46,057 nucleotides of DNA. Source: Candidatus Binatia bacterium. Its GTDB lineage: Bacteria; Chloroflexota; Limnocylindria; Limnocylindrales; CSP1-4. The number at the start of each line of letters is the position of its first letter. The stretch's first letter is position 1. Under the pieces are notes generated by a model. The model worked only from the letters and a program-made list of their open reading frames with translations, was not told the origin of the DNA and searched no databases. The stretch covers positions 1-46,057 of the forward strand of contig DATLYV010000028.1 of the NCBI GenBank assembly GCA_035574535.1, read 5' to 3'. Below, piece by piece: positions 10,469 through 21,918 of the stretch. The position numbers and the translations under genes were made by a program.

Positions 10469-10612
10469 CGCGCGCCCCCCTTGATTGGCGCGCCCCCGCC
10501 TTGACCGACGCGCCCCGCTCGACCTGCTCGACCGCTCTGCCCTCGGCCGGCCCCGGCCCCCCTCGGTCCGCCCCGTCGGCCCGCCCCATCGGCCCGCCCC
10601 ATCGGCCCGCCG
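10469..10612. repeat. Two blocks of short tandem direct repeats: a ~19-20 bp unit GCGCGCCCCC..TTGA..G about 3 times at 10469-10524, and a 13-bp unit TCGGCCCGCCCCA about 3.8 times at 10564-10612
   Basis: Read directly from the sequence. Lies in the ~280-bp non-coding gap between the HK and the Tad-like operon. Confidence 0.6.
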
Positions 10613-10724
10613 GCCTAGCCGGCCTACCCCGGAGGTCCTCCCCGGCCAGTACGACTGGCTGGTGCGGGGTCGAACCAATGGCAAGGTGACGGGAAAGGTG
10701 CCCTGCGGAACCTTTGAGCCGTCG

Positions 10725-11648
10725 ATGAGAACCCGTCCCCAGTCCCGCGCGATCGAGTCTCGCGTGCGCGTCGTCGCGCGCTGGTCGAGCGCGTCCGCGA
10801 CGGCATCGTCCAGCCGCCATGCGAGCCCTTCGGAGGCGCCGACGACGCGCCGGAAGAACCGTGGCCAGAGCCTCGCCGAGTTCGCCCTGACCCTCCCGAT
10901 GCTCCTCCTGATGGTGCTGTTCGGGCTCGACTTCGGGCGGGTCTTCCTTGGCTGGGTCGCGCTCACGAACGCCGCCCGCGAGGCCGCCAACTACGCGGCC
11001 ATGAACCCGGCCGCCTGGACCAGCCCGTTCGACCTCGAGATCCAGGCCGAGTACGAGCGCCTCATCCAGACCGAGGCGTCGAACATCGACTGCACCCTCG
11101 AGTCACCAATCTCCGGACCCTCGTTCCCGGACGGGACCGGGATCGGGGCGCCGGCGAAGGTCGAGCTGTCGTGCGCGTTCGACCTCATCACGCCGTTCAT
11201 CGCGCTCCTCACCGGCAATCCGATCCCCGTCAGTGCCGATTCGGCGTTCCCGATCCGCGCCGGGCTCATCCAGTCCGTGCCGCTCGAGACCCCGACACCG
11301 GCCCCGACCGCCAGCCCGACGCCCGCGGCGACGGGTACCCCCGCCCCGACCGCGGTCGCCACGGTCGGCCCGGGCGCCACCCCGACGCCGACGCCCGGCC
11401 CGTCTGCGACGCCCACGCCCCAACCGACGCCGACGCCCTCGCCGACCCCGGCGACGTGCACCGTGCCGAGCCTCCTGAACCTCCAGACCAACAAGGTCGC
11501 GCAGGCATGGCAAGCCGCCGGGTTCACCGGGACCGTCGTCTACTTCCCGCTCGTGCCGCCGCACTACCGCGTCGCGTGGCAGAGCCTGACCGTCGGTTCG
11601 TCGGTCGTCTGCACGAGCGGGGTGACCGTCCGGAGCACGGTGCCGTGA
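10725..11648 (+). CDS. TadE-like pilus-assembly protein with Pro/Thr-rich linker and C-terminal PASTA-like domain
   Basis: TadE N-terminal signature RGQSLAEFALTLPMLLLMVLFGLDFG. A PT-rich linker follows. The C-terminus CTVPSLLNLQTNKVAQAWQAAGFTGTVV...QSLTVGSSVVCTSGVTV resembles a PASTA repeat. The start is uncertain (ATG 10725 or GTG 10764). Confidence 0.7.
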   Translation: MRTRPQSRAIESRVRVVARWSSASATASSSRHASPSEAPTTRRKNRGQSLAEFALTLPMLLLMVLFGLDFGRVFLGWVALTNAAREAANYAAMNPAAWTSPFDLEIQAEYERLIQTEASNIDCTLESPISGPSFPDGTGIGAPAKVELSCAFDLITPFIALLTGNPIPVSADSAFPIRAGLIQSVPLETPTPAPTASPTPAATGTPAPTAVATVGPGATPTPTPGPSATPTPQPTPTPSPTPATCTVPSLLNLQTNKVAQAWQAAGFTGTVVYFPLVPPHYRVAWQSLTVGSSVVCTSGVTVRSTVP

Positions 11649-12151
11649 GCGCCCTGCGCCCGATCCGCCGCCGGCGCACGACGCCGATCGCTCGCGGCCA
11701 GAGCCTGGTCGAGTTCGCGCTCGTCTTCCCGATCATCGTCCTCGTCGTCGTGGCCTTCGTCGAGGTCGGACGCGCGGTCTTCGCCTGGAACACCATCGCC
11801 AACGCCGCCCGGCAAGGCGCCCGGGTCGCGGCGGTGAACCAGCTCGCCGACGTCACCGAGTGCGACGAATCCCGCCCGATCGAGGACCCCTACGATCCGC
11901 ACTGGTCGTTCAAGGGCTGCGCCCTCGTCGCGGCGAAGACGCTCGGCCTGACCGGGTCGAATGTGAGCGTCGCCTACAGCGCCCCGCCCGGCACCACCGT
12001 CGAGTGCTCCCCGACGTTGCACGTCGGCTGCATCGCGGCGGTCACCGTCACCTACGACTTCGAGGTCTCGACGCCGTTCGTCAACTGGATCATCGGCCCC
12101 TTCACGATGAGCCAGACCTCCGAGATGCCCATCGAAAGGGTCTTCCCATGA
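11645..12151 (+). CDS. TadE-like protein
   Basis: The GTG start overlaps the upstream stop (GTGA). Signature RGQSLVEFALVFPIIVLVVVAFVEVG. Confidence 0.75.
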   Translation: MSALRPIRRRRTTPIARGQSLVEFALVFPIIVLVVVAFVEVGRAVFAWNTIANAARQGARVAAVNQLADVTECDESRPIEDPYDPHWSFKGCALVAAKTLGLTGSNVSVAYSAPPGTTVECSPTLHVGCIAAVTVTYDFEVSTPFVNWIIGPFTMSQTSEMPIERVFP

Positions 12152-13497
12152 GCTCGTCCATCGACCGACCCGCGCACCGCTTCCCGGCCCGCGCAGCCCG
12201 GCCCCGGCGCAGCGACGGCGAGTCGGGCCAGGCCATCGTCGTGATGCTCGGCGCCATCCTGCTGTCGGTCGCCCTCGTCGCGACGATCGTCGACGGCGGG
12301 AACGTCTTCGCCCAGCAGCGAGTGACCCAGAACGGCGTCGACGCGGCGGCCGAGGCCGGGGCCGTGCTGCTCGCCGAGCGCCTCGCGGGCGCGAACGAGC
12401 CCTCGGGCGGCTGGGACATCAACATCGCCGTGCGGATCCTGCAGGTGGCCGAGGCCAACGGGATCACGGTCCAGGCCGCGTACTACACGGACATCTGCGG
12501 CATCCCGCTCAAGGCTGACGGCTCGGCGGCGATCGACACCGACTCGCGCAAGGAGGACCTGGCCGCCGCCCTCCAGGTCGGCAACGGCGCGCACATCCTG
12601 CCCGGCGGCGCGGCGACGGCGCCGGACTGCCCCAACCGGCTCGTCGGTCCGGTGGCGGGCGTCATGGTCGTCGGCGAGAAGGAGATCGCCGCCTACATCG
12701 CGGGCGCCATCGGGATCAACACGTTCCTCATCCGGACCCGCGCGACCGCGGTCGCCGGCTACATCCAGAGTTACTGCGACGCGAGCGAGGGCAAGTACTG
12801 CGCCCTCCTGCCGGTCGCGTTTCCGACCTCGATCATCGTTTGCAACGGCTCGAACAAGCCGCTCGACACCGGCGAGCCGTGGAAGTTCGGGATCGTCTAC
12901 AAGATCCCGCTGTGCCAGGCGAGCCCGGGCAACGTCGGCTACCTCGACTGGGACCCGCCGGCGGGCGGCACGGGCGAGGTCGTCTGCTCGATCCTCACCG
13001 CGGACAATCCGGCCATCGACCTGCCGTCGTGGCAGTACGTCACCGCGACCGGCAACTCGAACGGCGGCGGCGGCAAGTGCGGCATGTCGATCGAGGAGGC
13101 CATCCGGACCTACGACGGCAAGACGGTCCTGGTCCCGCAGTTCGACCTGAGCTGCAACCCGTCGAACGGCTCGTCGCCCGACAGCACGGAGCCCGCGGTG
13201 ATCACGCCGCCGAACTACGGCTGCCCGTCCGGCGCGCTCGGCGGCAACGGCTCGAACCAGTGGTACCGGATGCCGAGCTTCGCGTTCCTCCAGCTGTGCT
13301 CGCCATCGACGGCGGGCTGTGGGGGACTCCATGGTGCGTACATCTCCGGCAACAACAGCGCCATCTGCGACGCGGGCAACGGCGCGACATCCTGCCTCGT
13401 GGCCAGGTTCGTGCACATCATGGCGACGGGCACGGTCGGCGCCGGCGTGGGGTCCGGGACGGGCAACAAGGCCGTCGGGGTGCAGCTCATCAAATAG
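12148..13497 (+). CDS. TadG-like protein (Tad N-terminal domain, large extracellular region)
   Basis: ATGA overlap with the upstream gene. The N-terminus GESGQAIVVMLGAILLSVALVATIVDGGNVF is typical of the TadG-like N-terminal domain. Confidence 0.7.
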   Translation: MSSSIDRPAHRFPARAARPRRSDGESGQAIVVMLGAILLSVALVATIVDGGNVFAQQRVTQNGVDAAAEAGAVLLAERLAGANEPSGGWDINIAVRILQVAEANGITVQAAYYTDICGIPLKADGSAAIDTDSRKEDLAAALQVGNGAHILPGGAATAPDCPNRLVGPVAGVMVVGEKEIAAYIAGAIGINTFLIRTRATAVAGYIQSYCDASEGKYCALLPVAFPTSIIVCNGSNKPLDTGEPWKFGIVYKIPLCQASPGNVGYLDWDPPAGGTGEVVCSILTADNPAIDLPSWQYVTATGNSNGGGGKCGMSIEEAIRTYDGKTVLVPQFDLSCNPSNGSSPDSTEPAVITPPNYGCPSGALGGNGSNQWYRMPSFAFLQLCSPSTAGCGGLHGAYISGNNSAICDAGNGATSCLVARFVHIMATGTVGAGVGSGTGNKAVGVQLIK

Positions 13498-14305: not shown

Positions 14306-14367
14306 CATCGCCTATAATCCCCGACCCGGGCCGACATAGCTCAGCGGTAGAGCAGCTGTTTTCGTAA
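14306..14367 (+). repeat. attL-like remnant: promoter-like element (TATAAT at 14313-14318) plus the first ~38 nt of tRNA-Thr(CGT), 14330-14367, with a 1-nt T insertion in the anticodon-loop region
   Basis: The 32 nt GCCGACATAGCTCAGCGGTAGAGCAGCTGTTT and the following CGTAA are identical to 19394-19431. Upstream, CATCGCCTATA is also shared with 19371-19381. Confidence 0.8.
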
Positions 14368-14531
14368 GTCTCCCGCGCTTTGCGTAGTGCCACCCCGAGT
14401 GGCGGCTACGCACAAGTCGGCACACTTATCTGCTGAAAGCGCGAGACCCCGACCACCGCAGACGGTCGCTGTGGCCTGGCCCGCTCCCGGGCTACTCCGG
14501 ACACTCGGATGGGTCGGTCGTGATCGCCAAC

Positions 14532-15165
14532 CTAGCGGGTCGTGCCGCCGGCCTGCTCCTCCGCGGCGGCGAGCAAGCGATCTAGCTGCGACCAGTTCGT
14601 TCGTAGATCCTTCGCGTGGTAGCGGCCGACCTCGCCTGAACGCAGGAACCATGCCTCCAACCAAGCGAGCTCACCTCGGGAGATCTCCACGGCAGCTAGC
14701 GTGGCTTTGGCCAGAAGGCTCGCCGAACGCTTGCGCAGCTGAAGGCCCGCTCGATCCACAGGAGGCGGAGTCCAGGCCCGGAGTCATCCTCCGAGGAGTA
14801 GACCGAGCGGCAGGCACAACTGGTGTTCGCGCCACGTGATCACCCCTGTCGGCGACGTGAATGCTGATTCCATGAAGCGGGCGCTTGAGCGTCGGTCAAT
14901 GGCCAGGAACCGCTCGAGCATCGGCTTGAGGTCGCGGCGGCGTTCTGCCTTCCAAGGCCGTCATCTCGCGCCCAGTGATGACTCGATCGAATGCTGCCCA
15001 AAGCGCGGCAGGGGATCGCTCGGCTTCATAGAAGGGTTGCGCGGCGGAGTACACCCAGCCGCGCTGCGGAAAAAAGAACCCCTTGCCTGCCCGAGCTGAG
15101 AGGTCCCGGTCAGGGTTCCGACTCAGGGCAACGATGTCAGCCGCACCGAATGGCCGATCAAGCAT
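14532..15165 (-). pseudogene. Decayed gene downstream of the Ubl/E1/E2-like operon (one apparent frameshift and one in-frame TGA)
   Basis: An 89-aa ORF (15165-14896) starts 1 nt inside the stop of the upstream gene (TGATG). Protein-like reading continues in another frame (AERRRDLKPMLERFLAIDRRSSARFMES...). It is interrupted by a TGA at 14784-14786, then continues in the same frame as the 14532-14759 ORF. No family recognised. Confidence 0.4.
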
Positions 15166-15554
15166 CAGGCGCGATCATCGCTGAAGGCCGCCCGAATTGC
15201 GCTTTCGAGCCGGGCTCCGAGTCGCCGGACGATGCCGCCGTTGCGCGCTGGTCGGCGGCCCGGAAGATCACCCCGCCCGGACCGGTCCCACGCAGCCACG
15301 AAGCGGTCACCCTCGATGAAGTAGTGCGATCGACAGTCGTGGGCGCCATTCCGGATGGATGGGTGGATCGACACAGTCTCGCCGTCGAAGATGAGGTTCC
15401 AACTCCCAGGTGCGAAAGGGGTGACGACCTTGCGCTCGCAGCCGGGGCAGCGGTGGACCGCAGTCGCATACGGGAGACAGACGTAGAGGGTGTCGGCTTC
15501 GATCTCGACAGGGATGACTGGGACGAAGACGTGAGTGAGCTGGCCGCCGATCAA
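15165..15554 (-). CDS. DUF6527-like Zn-ribbon protein with E2-like HPS-x7-C motif (candidate E2-type conjugating enzyme)
   Basis: The TTG start overlaps the E1 stop (TTGA). Contains CPGC...C.SH putative metal ligands. HPSIRNGAHDC has the same spacing as the eukaryotic E2 active site HPNINSNGSIC. The family name is recalled from gene neighbourhoods with ThiF and multiubiquitin genes and was not searched. Confidence 0.65.
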   Translation of the reverse strand: MIGGQLTHVFVPVIPVEIEADTLYVCLPYATAVHRCPGCERKVVTPFAPGSWNLIFDGETVSIHPSIRNGAHDCRSHYFIEGDRFVAAWDRSGRGDLPGRRPARNGGIVRRLGARLESAIRAAFSDDRA

Positions 15555-16726
15555 CCGAGGTCTCCGTTGACGATCTCGTTCTGGTCGATCACGTAGATCG
15601 CGTTGTGCTCATCGACAAGGTCACGATAGAAGCCGAGGTGCCTCTTCCAACGGATCACGGCCAGAGCCGCATTGAGAGCGTTCAGATCGGCGATCTGGAT
15701 GTTGAGCCGATAGTCATTGTCCGGACCCGGATCGGCGAGACTGATGCGGCCACGGTCGGCCATCGGCTGCCTCGGATGGCTCATCGTCACTCGAACGATG
15801 CCGCCCAACGCGTCGCCGTCCTGCGCGACCCCCATCCCGAGGTCAATATATGGGATCCCGGCCTCCTCGAGCCTGCTGATGACCAGCTGCTTGGCGGCAC
15901 CCCGATCGATGGCGACGAAGACGAAATCCGCCCCGAGCAACTCCTCGACCGTTTCGAGGTCGAGGGCGTACGGGTGGGCGATCACGTTCGTGTGCATGGC
16001 CCGGTACTTGGCGGCGAAGTACTCGGCTTTGTTCGGCCCGCCGCGAAGCTCGTTTTTCGACGCCGCCCCGGGCGAGCGGAAGGCATTGTGCTGACGGAAC
16101 CGGTCGCCGTCGTAGACGTCGATCTGTCGGACCGGCGTCTTCGCCACCAGATCCAACACGTACGAGCCGCTCCCGCCGCAGCCCACGATGACGATCCGTG
16201 CCTGGCGGAGCTCGTCCATCAGCGCGGTGATCCTTGCCCTGGTCGCAGAGCTGTCGACGTACTCGAACGGCGAGTCGTCCTCGGGCTCCTCGACGAAATC
16301 GAAGGTCATCGGCGTGGCCCCAGGTTCCAGGACCGCCGCCGGCCCGGAGATCGCGAGCGCGTACCGCGACATCTTCGCGTGGTAGTCGGCGTATCCACCG
16401 GCCGGCTTGCTCGAGAAGGTCCTGTCGACCACCAGATCCTCGGCCAGCGACTGCACCGAGGCGCCGCCGCCAAGACGGAGCGGCTGGCCATCGACATCGC
16501 ATGGGGCGTCGCCTGACCAGAGGACGACGTGGTCGGTCGGCTTCGTCGTCCTGTCCCCATCCAACTCCAGGGCGCTGACGAGTCGGCCCCGCAGCACTTC
16601 GCGCGTCGCGGTGACGTAGGGGATGTGGTCGACGACCAGGTACCCGGTGCGGTGAATGAAGACCTCGTAGCCGTCCTCCCGGAGCCGCTCGAGGTCCGGG
16701 CTACGACTCAGTTGCGTCGTAGACAT
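15551..16726 (-). CDS. ThiF/E1-like adenylyltransferase with ~150-aa N-terminal extra domain
   Basis: Rossmann nucleotide-binding motif IVIVGCGGSGSYVLD followed by YDGDRFRQHNAFR, as in E1/ThiF/MoeB. The N-terminal domain contains H66...PC76 (DHVVLWSGDAPCD). Confidence 0.85.
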   Translation of the reverse strand: MSTTQLSRSPDLERLREDGYEVFIHRTGYLVVDHIPYVTATREVLRGRLVSALELDGDRTTKPTDHVVLWSGDAPCDVDGQPLRLGGGASVQSLAEDLVVDRTFSSKPAGGYADYHAKMSRYALAISGPAAVLEPGATPMTFDFVEEPEDDSPFEYVDSSATRARITALMDELRQARIVIVGCGGSGSYVLDLVAKTPVRQIDVYDGDRFRQHNAFRSPGAASKNELRGGPNKAEYFAAKYRAMHTNVIAHPYALDLETVEELLGADFVFVAIDRGAAKQLVISRLEEAGIPYIDLGMGVAQDGDALGGIVRVTMSHPRQPMADRGRISLADPGPDNDYRLNIQIADLNALNAALAVIRWKRHLGFYRDLVDEHNAIYVIDQNEIVNGDLG

Positions 16727-16985
16727 TGAAGACCATGCCCTTGTGGACCGGGACCTCCTGGCCAGCCACGAGCGTTCCCTTCTGGGAGCTTTCGCCCCGG
16801 GCGTAGGTCACCACGATCACCACGTTGGGCCCGGTCGGCGGGTTCCCGTCGTACGCCAGCTCGACGACCTGCTCGTACGAGAGCTTCTTCTCATGCACCA
16901 CGTGCGGGGTGCCATTGACCACGATCTCGATGCTCGTCTCGTGGGGTCCGTGTCCGGCCGCGGACGCGGCCACTTCCATGGTCAC
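16701..16985 (-). CDS. Small beta-grasp ubiquitin-like protein (multiubiquitin-type domain)
   Basis: 94 aa. IEIVVNGTPHVVHEKKLSYEQVVELAY...TLVAGQEVPVHKGMVFNV matches my recollection of the single-repeat multiubiquitin domain pattern. GAGGAG RBS 9 nt upstream. The 3' end overlaps the E1 start by 26 nt. Confidence 0.65.
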   Translation of the reverse strand: MTMEVAASAAGHGPHETSIEIVVNGTPHVVHEKKLSYEQVVELAYDGNPPTGPNVVIVVTYARGESSQKGTLVAGQEVPVHKGMVFNVYDATES

Positions 16986-17012
16986 TGCTTTCTCCTCTGC
17001 TGGATGGTCTAG

Positions 17013-17207
17013 CTAGCGCCCTTCGCGGATGCTGGTCTTGCGGTGGCGAGCGACGGTCGCGTCGGTGACGAACCGGCCGCTGATGGCGGAACGGTTCCCC
17101 TTGCCATTGCTTGGGACGGTCTGGGTGACCGTCGTCTTCGGGCGCCGAGCCGCGGTCGCCCGCGACACGAACCGTCCAGTGATCGCTGACCGATTGATCT
17201 TGCTCAT
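17013..17207 (-). CDS. Small basic protein made of two tandem ~27-aa repeats
   Basis: The internal ATG at 17207 is preceded by AAGGAG. The repeats are NRSAITGRFVSRATAARRPKTTV and NRSAISGRFVTDATVARHRKTSI. First gene of the minus-strand operon. Confidence 0.55.
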   Translation of the reverse strand: MSKINRSAITGRFVSRATAARRPKTTVTQTVPSNGKGNRSAISGRFVTDATVARHRKTSIREGR

Positions 17208-17377
17208 CTCGTGCTCCTTGATCGGGCGGGCATCGGTGCCATCCTGGACTGCGTCCGCCATCCGCCAACCGACAGGGGTGTCTGTGGACTTGTTACGGTA
17301 TTATACGAGCCAGTAACTGTTGCGTAACTACCATACCACGTGGTTCCGTCGTAACGTCAAGCCACGAAAGGAGGTGC
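17208..17377. promoter_or_regulatory. Divergent control region between the Ubl operon and the XRE-M78 gene, with operator-like repeats
   Basis: AT-richer than its surroundings. GTTAC-N16-GTAAC inverted repeat at 17292-17317 spans TATTATAC. Further GTAAC copies at 17324-17328 and 17351-17355. Perfect 10-bp palindrome ACCACGTGGT at 17335-17344. AAAGGAGG RBS before the GTG at 17378. Confidence 0.4.
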
Positions 17378-18607
17378 GTGACGTCTGGACTAGGGACTCG
17401 CCTCGTGGCCGCCCGGGAGACCCGCAGGCTCCCCCAAGACACGGTCGCTGGGCTACTCGGCGTTAGCCGGGTCATGGTTTCCTACTGGGAGCGCGGGCAG
17501 CGACGTCCGAGCGAACAGACCCTCGAACGGCTGGCGACCCTGTACGGTGTGCCGCTCGCAGTGCTCGTGGATCCCAACATTCCATTGCCGGGGTCGCCCG
17601 TCATACCGGGCGCTGATCTCGTGACCCTTCTGTTCCGGGACGCGGAGAGCGGCATTGACGCGGCCGCCGAGTCGGGGCTCGAGGACTTCGTCCGATTCCT
17701 CGACACCTATGCCGACTTGCTGGAGCGGCTCGATGTCGCCGGATACCCGCTACGGCAGTCGCCGTTCTCCATCCGGAAGGGCTTCATCGGCCGGGACGAT
17801 ATCCGCCGGAAGGCCGAGGAAGTCCGCGACTGGCTCCGCCTTGGGCTCGGACCGGTCGGCGATCTCACGGGTGTCCTCGATGATGCCGGCATCACCGTGT
17901 ATCGGACCGCGCTCGGCGCTGACCTGCAGCACGGCGTATCCGGAGCATTCCTGAACCATCCCCGACTCGGGATGTGCATCGCCGTCAACCTCGAGACCAC
18001 GCCGGGTCGACAGGTCTTCACGATCGCCCACGAGCTAGCGCATGCGCTCTACCACAGCCACCGCGACGGCCAGGTCGTGAGCTACTGGGGCCGTCAGGAC
18101 GAAAAGGAGCGGTTCGCGGATGCCTGGGCCGGAGAATTCCTCGTCCCGCAGGAGGGCTTGCGCCGAGCGAGCGAGAGCCTAGGAATCAAGAACGTGACGA
18201 CCGCCGATGAGGCGGTCCACCTCCAGCGGCTCTACGGCGTCTCATACGGGATGATGCTGGTCCGGCTCCTTCAGGCCAACTTGCTGAGCGCGGAGACGTA
18301 TGACGCCGTCAAGGGTGCTCGACCGGTGGCGATCGCATCGGCCCTGGGCTACGCAGTCCATCCAGAGGAGTGGCGCCAAGACCCTGCCCGTTGGCGGTTG
18401 GAGCGGTTCCCGCGTCGGTTCATCCGCGCGTTGACGACAGCCCTGCGAGACGGCCGGATCAGCCCAAGCTCTGCTGCGTCGCTTACAGGTCTGACCGTCG
18501 ATGAGATGGCCGAGCTCATGACCCCACCAGCAGGCAACGGAGACGCGCAAGCCGTCCAGGAGCAGCGCGAGTTCGCCGGTGTCCGACAGCGCGTCGCCGC
18601 CGCCTGA
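17378..18607 (+). CDS. XRE-family HTH fused to ImmA/IrrE-type (M78) zinc metallopeptidase
   Basis: N-terminal HTH (LVAARETRRLPQDTVAGLLGVSRVMVSYWERGQRRPS). HEXXH motif in FTIAHELAHALYH, followed by ERFADAWAGEFLVP. Confidence 0.85.
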   Translation: MTSGLGTRLVAARETRRLPQDTVAGLLGVSRVMVSYWERGQRRPSEQTLERLATLYGVPLAVLVDPNIPLPGSPVIPGADLVTLLFRDAESGIDAAAESGLEDFVRFLDTYADLLERLDVAGYPLRQSPFSIRKGFIGRDDIRRKAEEVRDWLRLGLGPVGDLTGVLDDAGITVYRTALGADLQHGVSGAFLNHPRLGMCIAVNLETTPGRQVFTIAHELAHALYHSHRDGQVVSYWGRQDEKERFADAWAGEFLVPQEGLRRASESLGIKNVTTADEAVHLQRLYGVSYGMMLVRLLQANLLSAETYDAVKGARPVAIASALGYAVHPEEWRQDPARWRLERFPRRFIRALTTALRDGRISPSSAASLTGLTVDEMAELMTPPAGNGDAQAVQEQREFAGVRQRVAAA

Positions 18608-19223
18608 GACCCCGGTCGTCTTCGACACCGTCGTCGTCAACTACTTCCTCGCAGCTGGCGAGGTCGAGCTCCTGACCCAGCTGTTTGGGCAGCCCTTGCG
18701 TGTCCCCCGAGCGGTCTTCGATCCGGATGAGGAGGACTCCGAACGCGAAGAGGCGATGAGCGAGCTTCGACGCGGTCTGCACCTCCACAGACGCCGGGTG
18801 GCTGACAAGGCCACGGCGCCAGAATTGCGAGACAAGTCGATCCGGGCACTGCCGCACTTTGAACGATTGCCTGGATTGTTCGAGTCAGTGACGATCGCGG
18901 TGCTTGACATGGATGCCGCGGAGCTGCGGCGCTATGCAGAGATGCGTGACCCGAAGCTGGCGGCCACCTTCGGCACGGTTCTGGGCCTGGGCGCCGGCGA
19001 GGCGGCAATGCTCGCGATCTGCGAGAACAGGAAGTGGGTCCCGGCAACAGACGACTCGGATGCGATCACCGTGGCCAAGCGGCTGCTGCCGGGCGTTAGG
19101 CCGCTACGGATCCGGGCGATCCTCCGCCGAGCAATCGACGCAGGGCTGATCGATCTCGGAGCAGGGCGCCGACTTCACCAGACGATGCGGGAACTTGGCT
19201 TCTGGGACACCGGTCAACTGTAG
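18579..19223 (+). CDS. PIN-like domain protein (putative nuclease/toxin-like partner)
   Basis: The GTG start overlaps the upstream gene by 29 nt. Acidic residues sit at PIN-like positions: VVFDTVVVNYF, GAGEAAMLAIC and PATDDSDAI. Confidence 0.55.
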   Translation: MSDSASPPPETPVVFDTVVVNYFLAAGEVELLTQLFGQPLRVPRAVFDPDEEDSEREEAMSELRRGLHLHRRRVADKATAPELRDKSIRALPHFERLPGLFESVTIAVLDMDAAELRRYAEMRDPKLAATFGTVLGLGAGEAAMLAICENRKWVPATDDSDAITVAKRLLPGVRPLRIRAILRRAIDAGLIDLGAGRRLHQTMRELGFWDTGQL

Positions 19224-19393
19224 GGATCGCTCCGGACCAAGCGGGGTCATCCTCGTCGTCAACCACGCCGGCCAGGGTCGGAAGTTATCTGCTGAATCCG
19301 GCTCCGCTACAGGTCCGACGCGGCGAGACCAGTTCCCGTCTGCCCATGGCTTTGAGCAGCTGTTTGAACTCATCGCCTATACTCGCCCCTCGG

Positions 19394-19468
19394 GCCGACA
19401 TAGCTCAGCGGTAGAGCAGCTGTTTCGTAAACAGCAGGTCCTCGGTTCAAATCCGAGTGTCGGCTCCA
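19394..19468 (+). tRNA. tRNA-Thr, anticodon CGT, CCA encoded
   Basis: Folded by hand. Acceptor GCCGACA/TGTCGGC, D stem GCTC/GAGC, anticodon stem GCTGT/ACAGC with loop TTCGTAA, T stem CTCGG/CCGAG with loop TTCAAAT. Length 75 nt. TATACT -10-like hexamer at 19378-19383. Confidence 0.9.
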
Positions 19469-19710: not shown

Positions 19711-21918
19711 CTACGGGCTCGAGCTGACGGGCGCGCCGACGGGCTCGACGCCCGGAGGGCCGAGTCGCAGCCCGCGGAGGAGCTGGGCGTTGAGGGCGAC
19801 GATGATCGTCGAGACGCTCATCGCGATCGCGCCGACGGCCATCGGCAGGTCGATCCCCCACGGCACCAGGACCCCGGCCGCGACCGGGATGGCGACGAGG
19901 TTGTAGCCGGTCGCCCAGACGAGGTTCTGGAGCATCTTCCGGTAGGTCGCGCGCGAGAGCTCGATCGCCCCGACGACGTCGCGCGGGTCGCTCCGGACGA
20001 GCACGATACCGGCCGACTCCACGGCCACGTCGGTCCCGGCGCCGATCGCGATCCCGACGTCGGCCGTGGCCAGCGCGGGCGCGTCGTTGACGCCGTCGCC
20101 GACCATCGCGACCCGCCGCGCGCCCGACTGGAAGCGCCGGACCGCGGCAGCCTTGTCGGCGGGGAGGACCTGCGCGGCGACCTCGTCGATCTCGAGCCGC
20201 CGCGCGACGGAGTCGGCGACCGCCTGGCTGTCGCCGGTGATCATCGCCACCCGCAGGCCGAGGTCGTGGAGCCTGCGCACCGCGTCCGCCGACTCCGGCC
20301 GGATCTCGTCCTCGAGGCCGAACGCGCCGACGATCCGGCCGTCCGCGACGACGTGCAGGACGGTCCGGCCCTCGGCGGCCCACGGCGCCGTCGCGGGGAG
20401 CGGCTCGAGACCGAGCTCCGCGAGGAGCTGCGGGCCACCGACGGCCACGGTCCGGCCGTCAACGGTGGCGCGCGCCCCCCGGCCCGGCAGGCTCTCGAAG
20501 CCGGTCGCGGCGGGGACCTTTAGACCCCGCTCCGTGGCGGCCGCGACGATGGCCCGCGCCAGGGGATGCTCCGAGTCCGACTCGACCGCGGCGGCCAGTC
20601 GCAGCAGCTCGGCCTTGGTGCCCGCGTCGCCGCCCTCGGCGCCGGTGTCGCCCACCGTCGCCATCGCCGTCACGGCGTGCCGCCCTCGCGTCAGCGTGCC
20701 CGTCTTGTCGAAGATGACGACGTCGAGCTCGCGCGCCCGCTCGAGCGCGAGCCGATCCTTGACGAGCAGCCCGTTGCGCGCGCCCAGCGACGTCGAGATG
20801 GCGATGACGAGCGGGATCGCGAGCCCCAGTGCGTGCGGGCAGGCGATGACGAGGACCGTCGCCGTCCGGACGAGCGCGCCCTCCCGATCGCCCGCGAGCC
20901 ACCAGAACCCGAGGGTCAGCGCGCCCGCGACCAGCGCGACGTAGAAGAGCAGCGCCGCCGCGCGATCCGCGAGCGCCTGGGCGCGCGACGCGGACAACTG
21001 GGCCGCCTCGACCAGCCGCATGATCCCCGAAAGCGCGGTCGCCTCCCCGACCGCCTCGACGCGCACCCGCAGGCTGCCGCCGGCGGCGACCGTCCCGGCG
21101 ACGACCCGGTCGCCCCTGGCCTTCGGGACCGGCCTCGACTCGCCGGTGATCATCGACTCGTCGAGGTCGGCCTCGCCGTCGAGCACCTCGCCGTCGGCGG
21201 GCACCCGACCGCCCGGCCGCACCAGCACGACGTCGCCGGTCGACAGTGCGGACAGCGGAACCGTCTCGGTCCGTCCGTCGACCGCCCGCTCCGCCGTGTC
21301 GGGGAGCAGCTCGGCGAGGGCCGCGAGGGAGCCGCGCGCCTGCTCGATCGACCGCATCTCCAGCCAGTGGCCGAGGAGCATGATCGTGATGAGGGTCGAC
21401 AGCTCCCACCAGATCTCGACCTCAAACAGGCCGAGCGTGGCTGCCGCGCTCGTCGCGAAGGCGACCACGATCGCGAGCGAGATGAGGGTCATCATCCCGG
21501 GCTGCCGATCGGCCAGCTCGCGGCGTGCGCCCCGCAGGAACACCAGACCGCCGTAGAAGAACAGGATCGTGCCGCCGAGCGCCGGGATCAGTTCCGAGCC
21601 CGGGAACCGGGGTGCCGCGTAGCCGATCCACGCCTGGATGTCGTCGCTCCAGGCGAGGACGGGCAGGGTCAGGAGGAGGCTGAGCCAGAACCGGTCGCGG
21701 AAGCCGGCGACGGAGTGGCCCTCGTGGCGATCGTGCGCCGCGTGGCGGTCACCGGTCGCGTGACGGTCACCGGTCGCGTGACGCCCGTGTGCCGCGTTCG
21801 CGGCTGCAGGTGCCGGCGCAGATGTCGCGACCTGCGGCGCGTGAGACGAACCCTCGTGCGCGTGCTGCGCACCTTCGTGCGAGCCGTGGCTTTCGTGCGC
21901 CGACGGGTGGTGGTCCAT
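19711..21918 (-). CDS. copB: P1B-type heavy-metal ATPase, CopB-like (His-rich N-terminus, CPH motif)
   Basis: Contains DKTGTLT, a TGES-like ITGESRP, GDGVNDAPAL, and the transmembrane motif CPHALGLAIP (CPH rather than CPC). The N-terminus is rich in His (HESHGSHEGAQHAHEGSSH, HATGDRHATGDRHAAHDRHEGH). Confidence 0.85.
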   Translation of the reverse strand: MDHHPSAHESHGSHEGAQHAHEGSSHAPQVATSAPAPAAANAAHGRHATGDRHATGDRHAAHDRHEGHSVAGFRDRFWLSLLLTLPVLAWSDDIQAWIGYAAPRFPGSELIPALGGTILFFYGGLVFLRGARRELADRQPGMMTLISLAIVVAFATSAAATLGLFEVEIWWELSTLITIMLLGHWLEMRSIEQARGSLAALAELLPDTAERAVDGRTETVPLSALSTGDVVLVRPGGRVPADGEVLDGEADLDESMITGESRPVPKARGDRVVAGTVAAGGSLRVRVEAVGEATALSGIMRLVEAAQLSASRAQALADRAAALLFYVALVAGALTLGFWWLAGDREGALVRTATVLVIACPHALGLAIPLVIAISTSLGARNGLLVKDRLALERARELDVVIFDKTGTLTRGRHAVTAMATVGDTGAEGGDAGTKAELLRLAAAVESDSEHPLARAIVAAATERGLKVPAATGFESLPGRGARATVDGRTVAVGGPQLLAELGLEPLPATAPWAAEGRTVLHVVADGRIVGAFGLEDEIRPESADAVRRLHDLGLRVAMITGDSQAVADSVARRLEIDEVAAQVLPADKAAAVRRFQSGARRVAMVGDGVNDAPALATADVGIAIGAGTDVAVESAGIVLVRSDPRDVVGAIELSRATYRKMLQNLVWATGYNLVAIPVAAGVLVPWGIDLPMAVGAIAMSVSTIIVALNAQLLRGLRLGPPGVEPVGAPVSSSP

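Follow-up and report, generated by a model that had tools for sequence, protein, structure and literature searches.

The stretch of DNA analysed here, referred to as the window, is the 46,057-nucleotide (nt) contig DATLYV010000028.1 of Candidatus Binatia bacterium (assembly GCA_035574535.1). The element in question is a compact minus-strand operon on a tRNA-bounded islet, which very probably is a Type II Bub operon ("6E.2/DUF6527"), that is, a tagging system in which the ubiquitin-like protein (Ubl) BubA would be handled by BubBD and BubE. The minus-strand open reading frames (ORFs) concerned are located at 17013–17207, 16701–16985, 15551–16726, 15165–15554 and 14896–15165, with a further one at 14532–14759, and correspond to the following genes:

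17013–17207, minus strand: twin-repeat gene, 64 amino acids (aa), two copies of RSAI[ST]GRFV-x6-A-x-RHPxT[ST]V
16701–16985, minus strand: bubA, 94-aa Ubl, a single Multi_ubiq beta-grasp domain, C-terminus ...FNVYDATES
15551–16726, minus strand: bubBD, 391 aa, E2 domain (DUF6791) at residues ~10–159 (nt 16250–16699), ThiF-type adenylation domain at residues ~168–370
15165–15554, minus strand: bubE, 129-aa DUF6527 protein, predicted Ser-His protease (Ser66, His77)
14559–15162, minus strand: pseudogene of a ~217-aa protein, frameshift between ~14957 and 15004, in-frame stop at ~14778–14780

An earlier sequence-only reading had described five tightly coupled genes, and all four junctions among the five ORFs (a 27-nt gap, a 26-nt overlap, a TTGA overlap and a TGATG overlap) are exactly as it gave them. 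The twin-repeat gene, bubA, bubBD and bubE are all intact and translationally coupled.

Identity of the operon

The operons previously called "6E/DUF6527" were renamed Bub by Ye, Gong, Chambers, and Corbett (bioRxiv 10.1101/2024.11.21.623953), with Type II Bub consisting of BubA (Ubl), BubBD (a fusion of the conjugating enzyme E2 with the activating enzyme E1) and BubE (DUF6527), usually without a JAB peptidase. The window proteins belong to these families. In Pfam, BubA matches Multi_ubiq (PF14452; expectation value E=3.6e-14), BubBD matches both DUF6791 (PF20590; E=1.6e-48) and ThiF (PF00899; E=8e-16), and BubE matches DUF6527 (PF20137; E=2e-18); the profile hidden Markov model searches suggested by the sequence-only reading have thereby returned these four families, and its description of a ubiquitination-like Ubl/E1/E2 operon on an islet at a tRNA gene, here tRNA-Thr(CGT), holds. 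The beta-grasp, multiubiquitin-type assignment of the 94-aa protein is further borne out by a match to PDB entry 9cd2, the third of the beta-grasp domains in the Type II Bub Ubl of E. coli ZDHYS365 (E=3.9e-8). BubBD, which has more than 4,600 relatives, reaches 469 bits on the NCBIfam model PRK06153.1-4 (cutoff 352) and contains both motifs, GCGGSG and DRFRQHN, from which the ThiF/E1 adenylation domain had been recognised. Where the sequence-only reading saw no characterised type to which the operon could be assigned, assignment to Type II Bub (6E.2) can now be made.

The AlphaFold2 (AF2) model of BubBD has a predicted local distance difference test (pLDDT) score of 85.5. In a whole-chain Foldseek search, its best PDB match was Citrobacter BubCD (E=2e-12), ahead of PaaA, MccB, UBA5 and ThiF; all matches were E1 proteins, the E1 part having dominated the search. 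Citrobacter BubCD is also the closest solved match of the E1 domain by sequence profile. The E2 function would reside in the DUF6791 domain, as judged from the literature and from the order of secondary structure elements in the AF2 model, which confidently shows an N-terminal helix, a beta-meander and a long helix at the N-terminus of BubBD. The sequence-only reading had taken DUF6527 for the E2 and had seen in DUF6791 an "extra domain" attached to the E1; the published system assigns the E2 role to this very domain.

Residues at the catalytic positions are intact. Conservation in BubBD was counted over 191 unique homologues, and the window protein retains each of the following positions:

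His66, assisting the E2 serine: 191 of 191
Ser105, E2 nucleophile: 191 of 191
Lys107, assisting the E2 serine: 187 of 191
Arg217, adenylation: 191 of 191
Tyr339, crossover loop: 190 of 191

The window numbering is shifted by 1, 2 and 3 positions from S106, R219 and Y342 of the E. coli protein, in agreement with the indels in the alignment, and a check of the crossover-loop region (residues 300–345) found no cysteine. Of 76 aligned BubE sequences, all have Ser66 and 75 have His77, and the window protein has both. The HPS-x7-C motif of BubE, on which a small, E2-like zinc protein had been proposed, does exist; it is composed of the predicted nucleophile Ser66 and the zinc ligand Cys74 and is followed by His77, and BubE is described as a Ser-His protease with a zinc site and not as an E2 (bioRxiv 10.1101/2024.11.21.623953). 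By the same token, the operon was rightly said to have no JAB gene, since no islet ORF on either strand gave a JAB/JAMM match in Pfam, whereas the claim that a recognisable deconjugating peptidase is lacking does not stand, BubE being one.

Gene order is conserved. Among 80 other Bub loci taken from species-representative genomes, bubA is located upstream of bubBD in 78 and bubE downstream in 79, as the sequence-only reading had wished to see checked, and the bubA/bubBD overlap is present throughout the Bub loci listed. By RefSeq names, the BubA/BubBD/BubE trio is carried by 129 plasmids, while no BubBD homologue was found in 50,697 phage records. The ratio of nonsynonymous to synonymous substitution rates (dN/dS) was calculated against two relatives whose BubBD proteins are 87% and 78% identical to that of the window. 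It is 0.12–0.29 for BubA, 0.12–0.16 for BubBD and 0.20–0.25 for BubE, thus 0.12–0.29 over the core genes, and 0.22–0.53 for the twin-repeat gene, giving 0.12–0.53 across the four genes. By the values for the core genes, purifying selection acts on the window operon.

The biochemistry of Type II Bub was published in 2024–2026, and the system type is therefore not new; the window copy is an additional intact, well-preserved Type II Bub operon. The 2023 version of PADLOC gave no match to BubA or BubE and matched BubBD only partly, by the Rossmann segment of E1-E2 models, and thus failed to recognise the system. Residual interest lies in the twin-repeat accessory gene and in two family-wide features, the serine end of BubA and a cysteine of BubBD.

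The accessory gene, the islet and the regulator pair

The start of the twin-repeat gene was placed at the ATG at 17207, because relatives and an AAGGAG box before it point there; the longest ORF reaches 17261. All close relatives examined (loci L081, L082, L083/84 and L085) have a homologous 64-aa ORF immediately upstream of bubA, and the gene is absent from all of the 80 more distant Bub loci. Since nucleotide homology among the close relatives spans 15285–17224 only, the mobile unit would consist of the twin-repeat gene, bubA, bubBD and the core part of bubE. The twin-repeat gene is thus an accessory gene of this Bub subclade; probably, it goes along with a BubBD of 54% identity as well (P0138 with P0029). 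The family (P0121–P0319) counts 52 close members, and an exhaustive profile search found ~1,130 cluster representatives, almost all 60–75 aa long. It occurs also outside Bub, with three more distant members in unrelated neighbourhoods, and one longer member, P0285, is fused to a TetR_N helix-turn-helix (HTH) domain (Pfam). The N-terminal part of P0251 looks HicB/HTH-like, by eye only.

The AF2 model of the twin-repeat protein (pLDDT 86) shows a 2x(beta-beta-alpha-beta) fold that has no structural relative in the PDB; thus, the structure predictions proposed in the sequence-only reading led to Citrobacter BubCD for the E1 of BubBD and to no PDB match for this protein. Significant matches were likewise absent from Pfam, NCBIfam, PADLOC and PHROGs (best, phrog_27016, E=0.007), and a search of BFVD with the model returned single-repeat matches only, all to tiny phage proteins and none significant. 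A lysine conserved in each repeat was considered as acceptor of BubA and rejected, since many homologues have N, R, G, Q or S at that position. The best guess as to function, and no more than a guess, is a role in regulation or nucleic acid binding. That the protein is a true fourth component of this subclade of Type II Bub, be it as small DNA-binding autoregulator, as adaptor or as partner directing or sensing BubA conjugation, is a tentative and rather doubtful proposal; if it were true, the twin-repeat protein, the CxxC-type BubE and the fused XRE-M78/PIN-like module would together define a new Bub sub-variant.

The operon is contained in an islet together with the following features:

14306–14410, plus strand: left boundary, copy of the promoter-proximal region and 5' half of the tRNA, followed by a degenerate pseudo-3' half
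17208–17377, between the divergent genes: intergenic region with an imperfect palindrome at 17323–17356 (CGTAAC...GTTACG) and TATAAT at 17300–17305 on the minus strand (the latter by eye)
17378–18607, plus strand: XRE-M78 fusion, 409 aa, XRE HTH plus Peptidase_M78 with HELAH motif
18579–19223, plus strand: 214-aa partner, possibly PIN-like, 29-nt overlap with the XRE-M78 gene
19394–19468, plus strand: tRNA-Thr(CGT), intact (ARAGORN; Rfam tRNA, 72.6 bits), right islet boundary

The lower GC content noted in the sequence-only reading is evident, with 64–67% between 14 and 19 kb versus 70–76% in the flanks. The islet is bounded by a 35-nt perfect direct repeat, 14327–14361 being identical to 19391–19425, and the identity stops in the anticodon loop; the left copy is not called a tRNA by ARAGORN or Rfam. 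At two further loci, L089 (5180–5270) and L090 (2520–2616), a complementary junction follows the PIN-like gene, with a degenerate 5' half joined to a 3' half that is 98% identical to that of this tRNA, and the element family therefore targets the anticodon loop of tRNA-Thr(CGT). The copy in the window is 5.06 kb long, lacks an integrase and retains an intact tRNA on its right, and is thus either a remnant or a rearranged element. The structure of the attachment sites (window 14306–14410 and 19371–19468) suggests that an attP was derived from the whole tRNA-Thr gene and that gene conversion or rearrangement followed. Plus-strand ORFs across 14341–15596 and at 18242–18640 gave no Pfam matches and were treated as spurious.

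The decayed fourth gene of the sequence-only reading is a real pseudogene. A tblastn search with the 217-aa protein encoded at L083:11960–12613 returned two high-scoring segment pairs in frames -1 and -2 (joint E=3e-16) with one in-frame stop. Its inclusion among the Bub components was mistaken, as judged from gene content, since none of the 80 other Bub loci has a counterpart. The 217-aa family has no Pfam or PADLOC match. In L083, the intact relative follows immediately after an HTH plus SocA/Panacea antitoxin gene (L083 11155–12613), and the protein may be an uncharacterised toxin of a PanA-type pair.

In the close relatives, Bub is surrounded by genes for a serine recombinase (Resolvase), DNA methyltransferases, Eco57I-type restriction-modification and SNF2/DEAD helicases (read at L081 9675–11225, 1–4173 and 15090–17179, and at L083 1–3606); such surroundings are typical of defence islands, and the small islet of the window has no such genes. 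Outside the islet, the overlapping plus-strand ORFs 10485–11648, 11171–12151 and 11860–13497 (together 10485–13497) show, by eye only, N-terminal segments resembling the pilus-assembly proteins TadE/TadG, e.g., GQSLAEFALTLPMLLL and GQSLVEFALVFPIIVL. Just past the tRNA, a 735-aa ORF on the minus strand (19711–21918) displays, again by eye, the P-type ATPase motifs DKTGTLT, GDGVNDAP and CPH as well as a His-rich N-terminus, and probably encodes a copper or heavy-metal exporter.

The neighbouring gene that had been labelled an XRE-M78 regulator was correctly named, its product matching HTH_31/HTH_3 and Peptidase_M78 in Pfam (E=6e-18); in PADLOC, it matches RmrA (E=5e-28), capP (E=2e-16) and capH (E=8e-8). 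Its partner, for which PIN had been proposed, comes after the XRE-M78 gene at all of 8 metagenome loci and has the invariant residues D16, GEAA140–143 and TDD157–159. The PIN label is weakly supported, with one homologue each matching DUF3368 (E=0.012) and PIN (E=0.1); the window protein has no Pfam match, a PDB profile search gave no PIN confirmation, and in PADLOC the protein matches only PDC-S70 (E=1e-5) and no RmrT model. XRE-M78-module homology with L089 and L090 sets in at 17290–17319, and Bub-module homology ends at 17224. In L089, the XRE-M78 pair stands divergent from a Bub cassette without twin-repeat gene; the pair is 86% and BubBD 62% identical to the window counterparts, and the two modules therefore have separate histories. 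In L090, the pair faces a different cargo, whose first ORF (L090 1–450, minus strand; the contig ends inside it) weakly matches ubiquitin-like YukD below threshold (E=0.045). As judged from these comparisons, the XRE-M78/partner pair is a separate module which recombines with different cargos.

CapH+CapP is carried by 31% of Bub operons, which sit in tRNA-inserted elements (Ye et al.), and in the close relatives of the window locus a capP-like M78 peptidase is found upstream of Bub. The XRE-M78 protein is a candidate regulator of the window operon; like CapH+CapP, it would probably control the operon from the divergent promoter, and repression would be relieved by DNA damage or phage infection. 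There is, on the other hand, a sizeable possibility that XRE-M78 and the PIN-like partner form an independent toxin-antitoxin or defence module of the RosmerTA kind and do not regulate Bub. The RmrA matches agree with this, as do a weak match to the NCBIfam "spr1629 family repressor/antitoxin", the overlap and constant co-occurrence of the two genes, their separate history from Bub, and the L090 pair, which has no Bub gene within 550 nt upstream. Arguing for the regulator are the recurrence of a divergent Bub operon with two different cassettes (window and L089), the capP and capH matches of the same protein, the frequency of CapH+CapP beside Bub, and the failure of the partner to match RmrT models. 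The pair fits a CapH/CapP-type controller and, equally, a self-standing toxin-antitoxin or defence pair, and the two roles are not mutually exclusive.

Predicted chemistry of conjugation and its alternatives

For Type II Bub in the window, the mechanism is transferred by homology from the E. coli ZDHYS365 and Citrobacter systems of Ye et al.; regulation and any role in stress or against phages are inferred as well. First, the ThiF-type domain of a BubBD dimer would bind ATP via G182-x-G184-G185-x-G187, D206/D208 and R217 and would adenylate the C-terminal carboxylate of BubA. This carboxylate belongs to a serine in the window protein and in all relatives examined: each of the 78 BubA homologues encoded upstream of bubBD has Ser as its last residue (consensus ...FNVTATDKS*, window ...FNVYDATES*, last codon 16701–16703), and therefore it would be the C-terminal Ser that is adenylated by the E1. 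Processed Type I BubA ends in Gly; the C-terminal Ser of Type II BubA is left without comment in the Bub preprints. In the second step, the crossover-loop residue Tyr339 would attack the adenylate to give a BubA~Tyr oxyester. Third, Ser105 in the FSSKP motif of the N-terminal E2 domain would take over BubA with the help of Lys107 and His66 and would then hand it on to an amine of a target. Eventually, BubE, with its Ser66-His77 dyad on a zinc-stabilised beta-sandwich, would cleave the conjugates and thereby restrain the pathway.

Several observations weigh against the Type II Bub reading or parts of it. ATP-dependent Ubl conjugation by the oxyester route was demonstrated only for the E. coli and Citrobacter Bub systems (bioRxiv 10.1101/2024.11.21.623953), and a biological role, in particular the phage protection implied by the sequence-only reading, has been demonstrated for no Bub operon (PMC13373217). 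The E2 domain has no sequence similarity to any solved E2, Citrobacter BubB included (profile against all PDB sequences), or to UBE2D2 (hhalign). The published C4 zinc pattern of BubE (C-x-C-x-C ... C) is not found in the window protein, which has three cysteines, Cys74 included, and is one residue shorter there. With regard to regulation, a consensus promoter scan found no site in the islet, and the L090 pair has no Bub operon next to it. Finally, the near-invariant Cys76 of the E2 domain is unexplained by the oxyester model.

This Cys76 (16499–16501) is part of an invariant Pro75-Cys76 pair, is kept in 190 of 191 Type II BubBD proteins and is located 10 residues past the invariant His66. In UBE2D-type E2s, the HPN histidine and the catalytic cysteine are likewise 10 residues apart. 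Thioester chemistry may thus be envisaged, in which BubA would be borne, as in canonical E2s, by Cys76, either in place of Ser105 or in addition to it. Such a route is improbable, given that the S106A exchange in E. coli BubBD abolishes BubA-BubA conjugates and that the pathway is described as free of catalytic cysteines (bioRxiv 10.1101/2024.11.21.623953); furthermore, Ser105 is invariant, and Cys76 may be structural.

Even less probable is that the operon is no longer active and decays as a relic on a dead islet, in the manner of the adjoining pseudogene. In favour of decay, one could list the missing integrase, the frameshift next door and BubE itself, whose zinc site is non-canonical and whose C-terminal tail is unrelated to the tails of its relatives. 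In the zinc knuckle (residues 34–39, 15438–15455), the window protein and its clade read H-R-C-P-G-C versus the consensus H-K-C-C-C-G-C. This CPGC variant is, however, common to L081, L083 and L085; because it is shared by the clade, it is not a private lesion, and from the alignment it is taken as a clade-wide variant and not as decay. A histidine specific to the clade and missing from other clades, His72, precedes Cys74 by two residues (residues 72–75, 15331–15342). Either this residue or the invariant His34 may be the candidate fourth zinc ligand, and His72 perhaps reflects a compensating ligand swap; as a structural feature, the variation of the knuckle leaves the catalytic dyad of BubE unaffected. 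Relic status is further countered by four intact, coupled ORFs, by the retained residues at the catalytic positions and by the dN/dS values against both relatives.

A ThiS/MoaD-type sulfur-carrier system (ThiF/MoeB) serving cofactor biosynthesis can be dismissed: ThiF structures do occur among the structural matches of BubBD and the ThiF/MoeB models do match weakly, but the scores lie far under the curated cutoffs (38 bits versus 275 for TIGR02356, 15.7 versus 266 for MoeB), the best match by structure and by sequence is a Bub E1, BubA ends in Ser and not in Gly-Gly, and the mobile, low-GC islet contains no thiamine or molybdopterin genes and no rhodanese domain (Pfam, ORFs).

Comparison with known systems

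The regulator pair resembles CapH+CapP and RmrA of RosmerTA in that an XRE HTH and an M78 metallopeptidase are encoded divergently from a defence-type operon. Unlike the CapH+CapP pair, HTH and M78 are fused in one 409-aa protein, and unlike in either system, translational coupling links the gene to a partner of 214 aa that is itself conserved. With Bil (BilABCD) and Type II CBASS (Cap2/Cap3), the window operon has in common that all are bacterial E1/E2 conjugation systems carried by defence islands; a Ubl is likewise part of Bil, and Cap2 likewise is an E2-E1 fusion. Bil and Type II CBASS, unlike the window operon, use catalytic cysteines and a JAB peptidase. In CBASS, it is the nucleotidyltransferase CD-NTase that is conjugated, whereas neither a CD-NTase nor a JAB gene was found in the islet (Pfam, PADLOC), and the PADLOC E1-E2 models cover only the Rossmann segment of BubBD (E=8e-9), at variance with Type II CBASS.

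Closer is Type I Bub (6E.1), represented by Citrobacter BubAB/BubCD/BubE (PDB 9ea4, 9eav). Its E1 adenylation domain is the best structural match of BubBD, and both types comprise a DUF6527 protease, a Multi_ubiq Ubl and a crossover-loop Tyr. In Type I, the Ubl is fused to the E2 and JAB to the E1, whereas in the window the E2 is fused to the E1 and JAB is absent; the 94-aa BubA has no E2 domain, and it is DUF6791, not JAB, that is N-terminal to the E1. Type I BubA is Gly-ended after processing, while that of the window has its Ser end encoded.

The closest likeness is to Type II Bub of E. coli ZDHYS365 (PDB 9cd2), with the same three genes in the same order (Multi_ubiq Ubl, DUF6791-ThiF, DUF6527) and no JAB peptidase in either operon. 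The positions of Ser, Lys and His in the E2, of Arg and Tyr in the E1 and of Ser and His in BubE agree, and Type II Bub and the window operon are both found in a tRNA-inserted element beside an HTH/M78 regulator. The differences concern BubA, which has one beta-grasp domain in the window versus three in E. coli, and the knuckle of BubE (CPGC versus CCCGC). In addition, the window has the 64-aa twin-repeat gene upstream, unlike the E. coli operon, and, unlike published Type II Bub, a single HTH-M78 fusion with a PIN-like partner as regulator. Its host is high-GC, and among species-representative genomes no BubBD comes closer than 53% identity.

Among the known bacterial relatives of ubiquitination, Bub operons diverge the most; in the published work, their conjugation is described as proceeding without catalytic cysteines. 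The window locus leaves this overall picture unchanged. The family-wide C-terminal Ser of BubA and the Cys of the E2 domain both bear on the Bub mechanism. In relation to the known systems, the locus adds a compact example from a high-GC host in which the Ubl has a single domain, a conserved accessory gene of possible use in finding partners or targets, and clear evidence for the independent shuffling of Bub cassettes and HTH-M78 modules at a tRNA-Thr hotspot.

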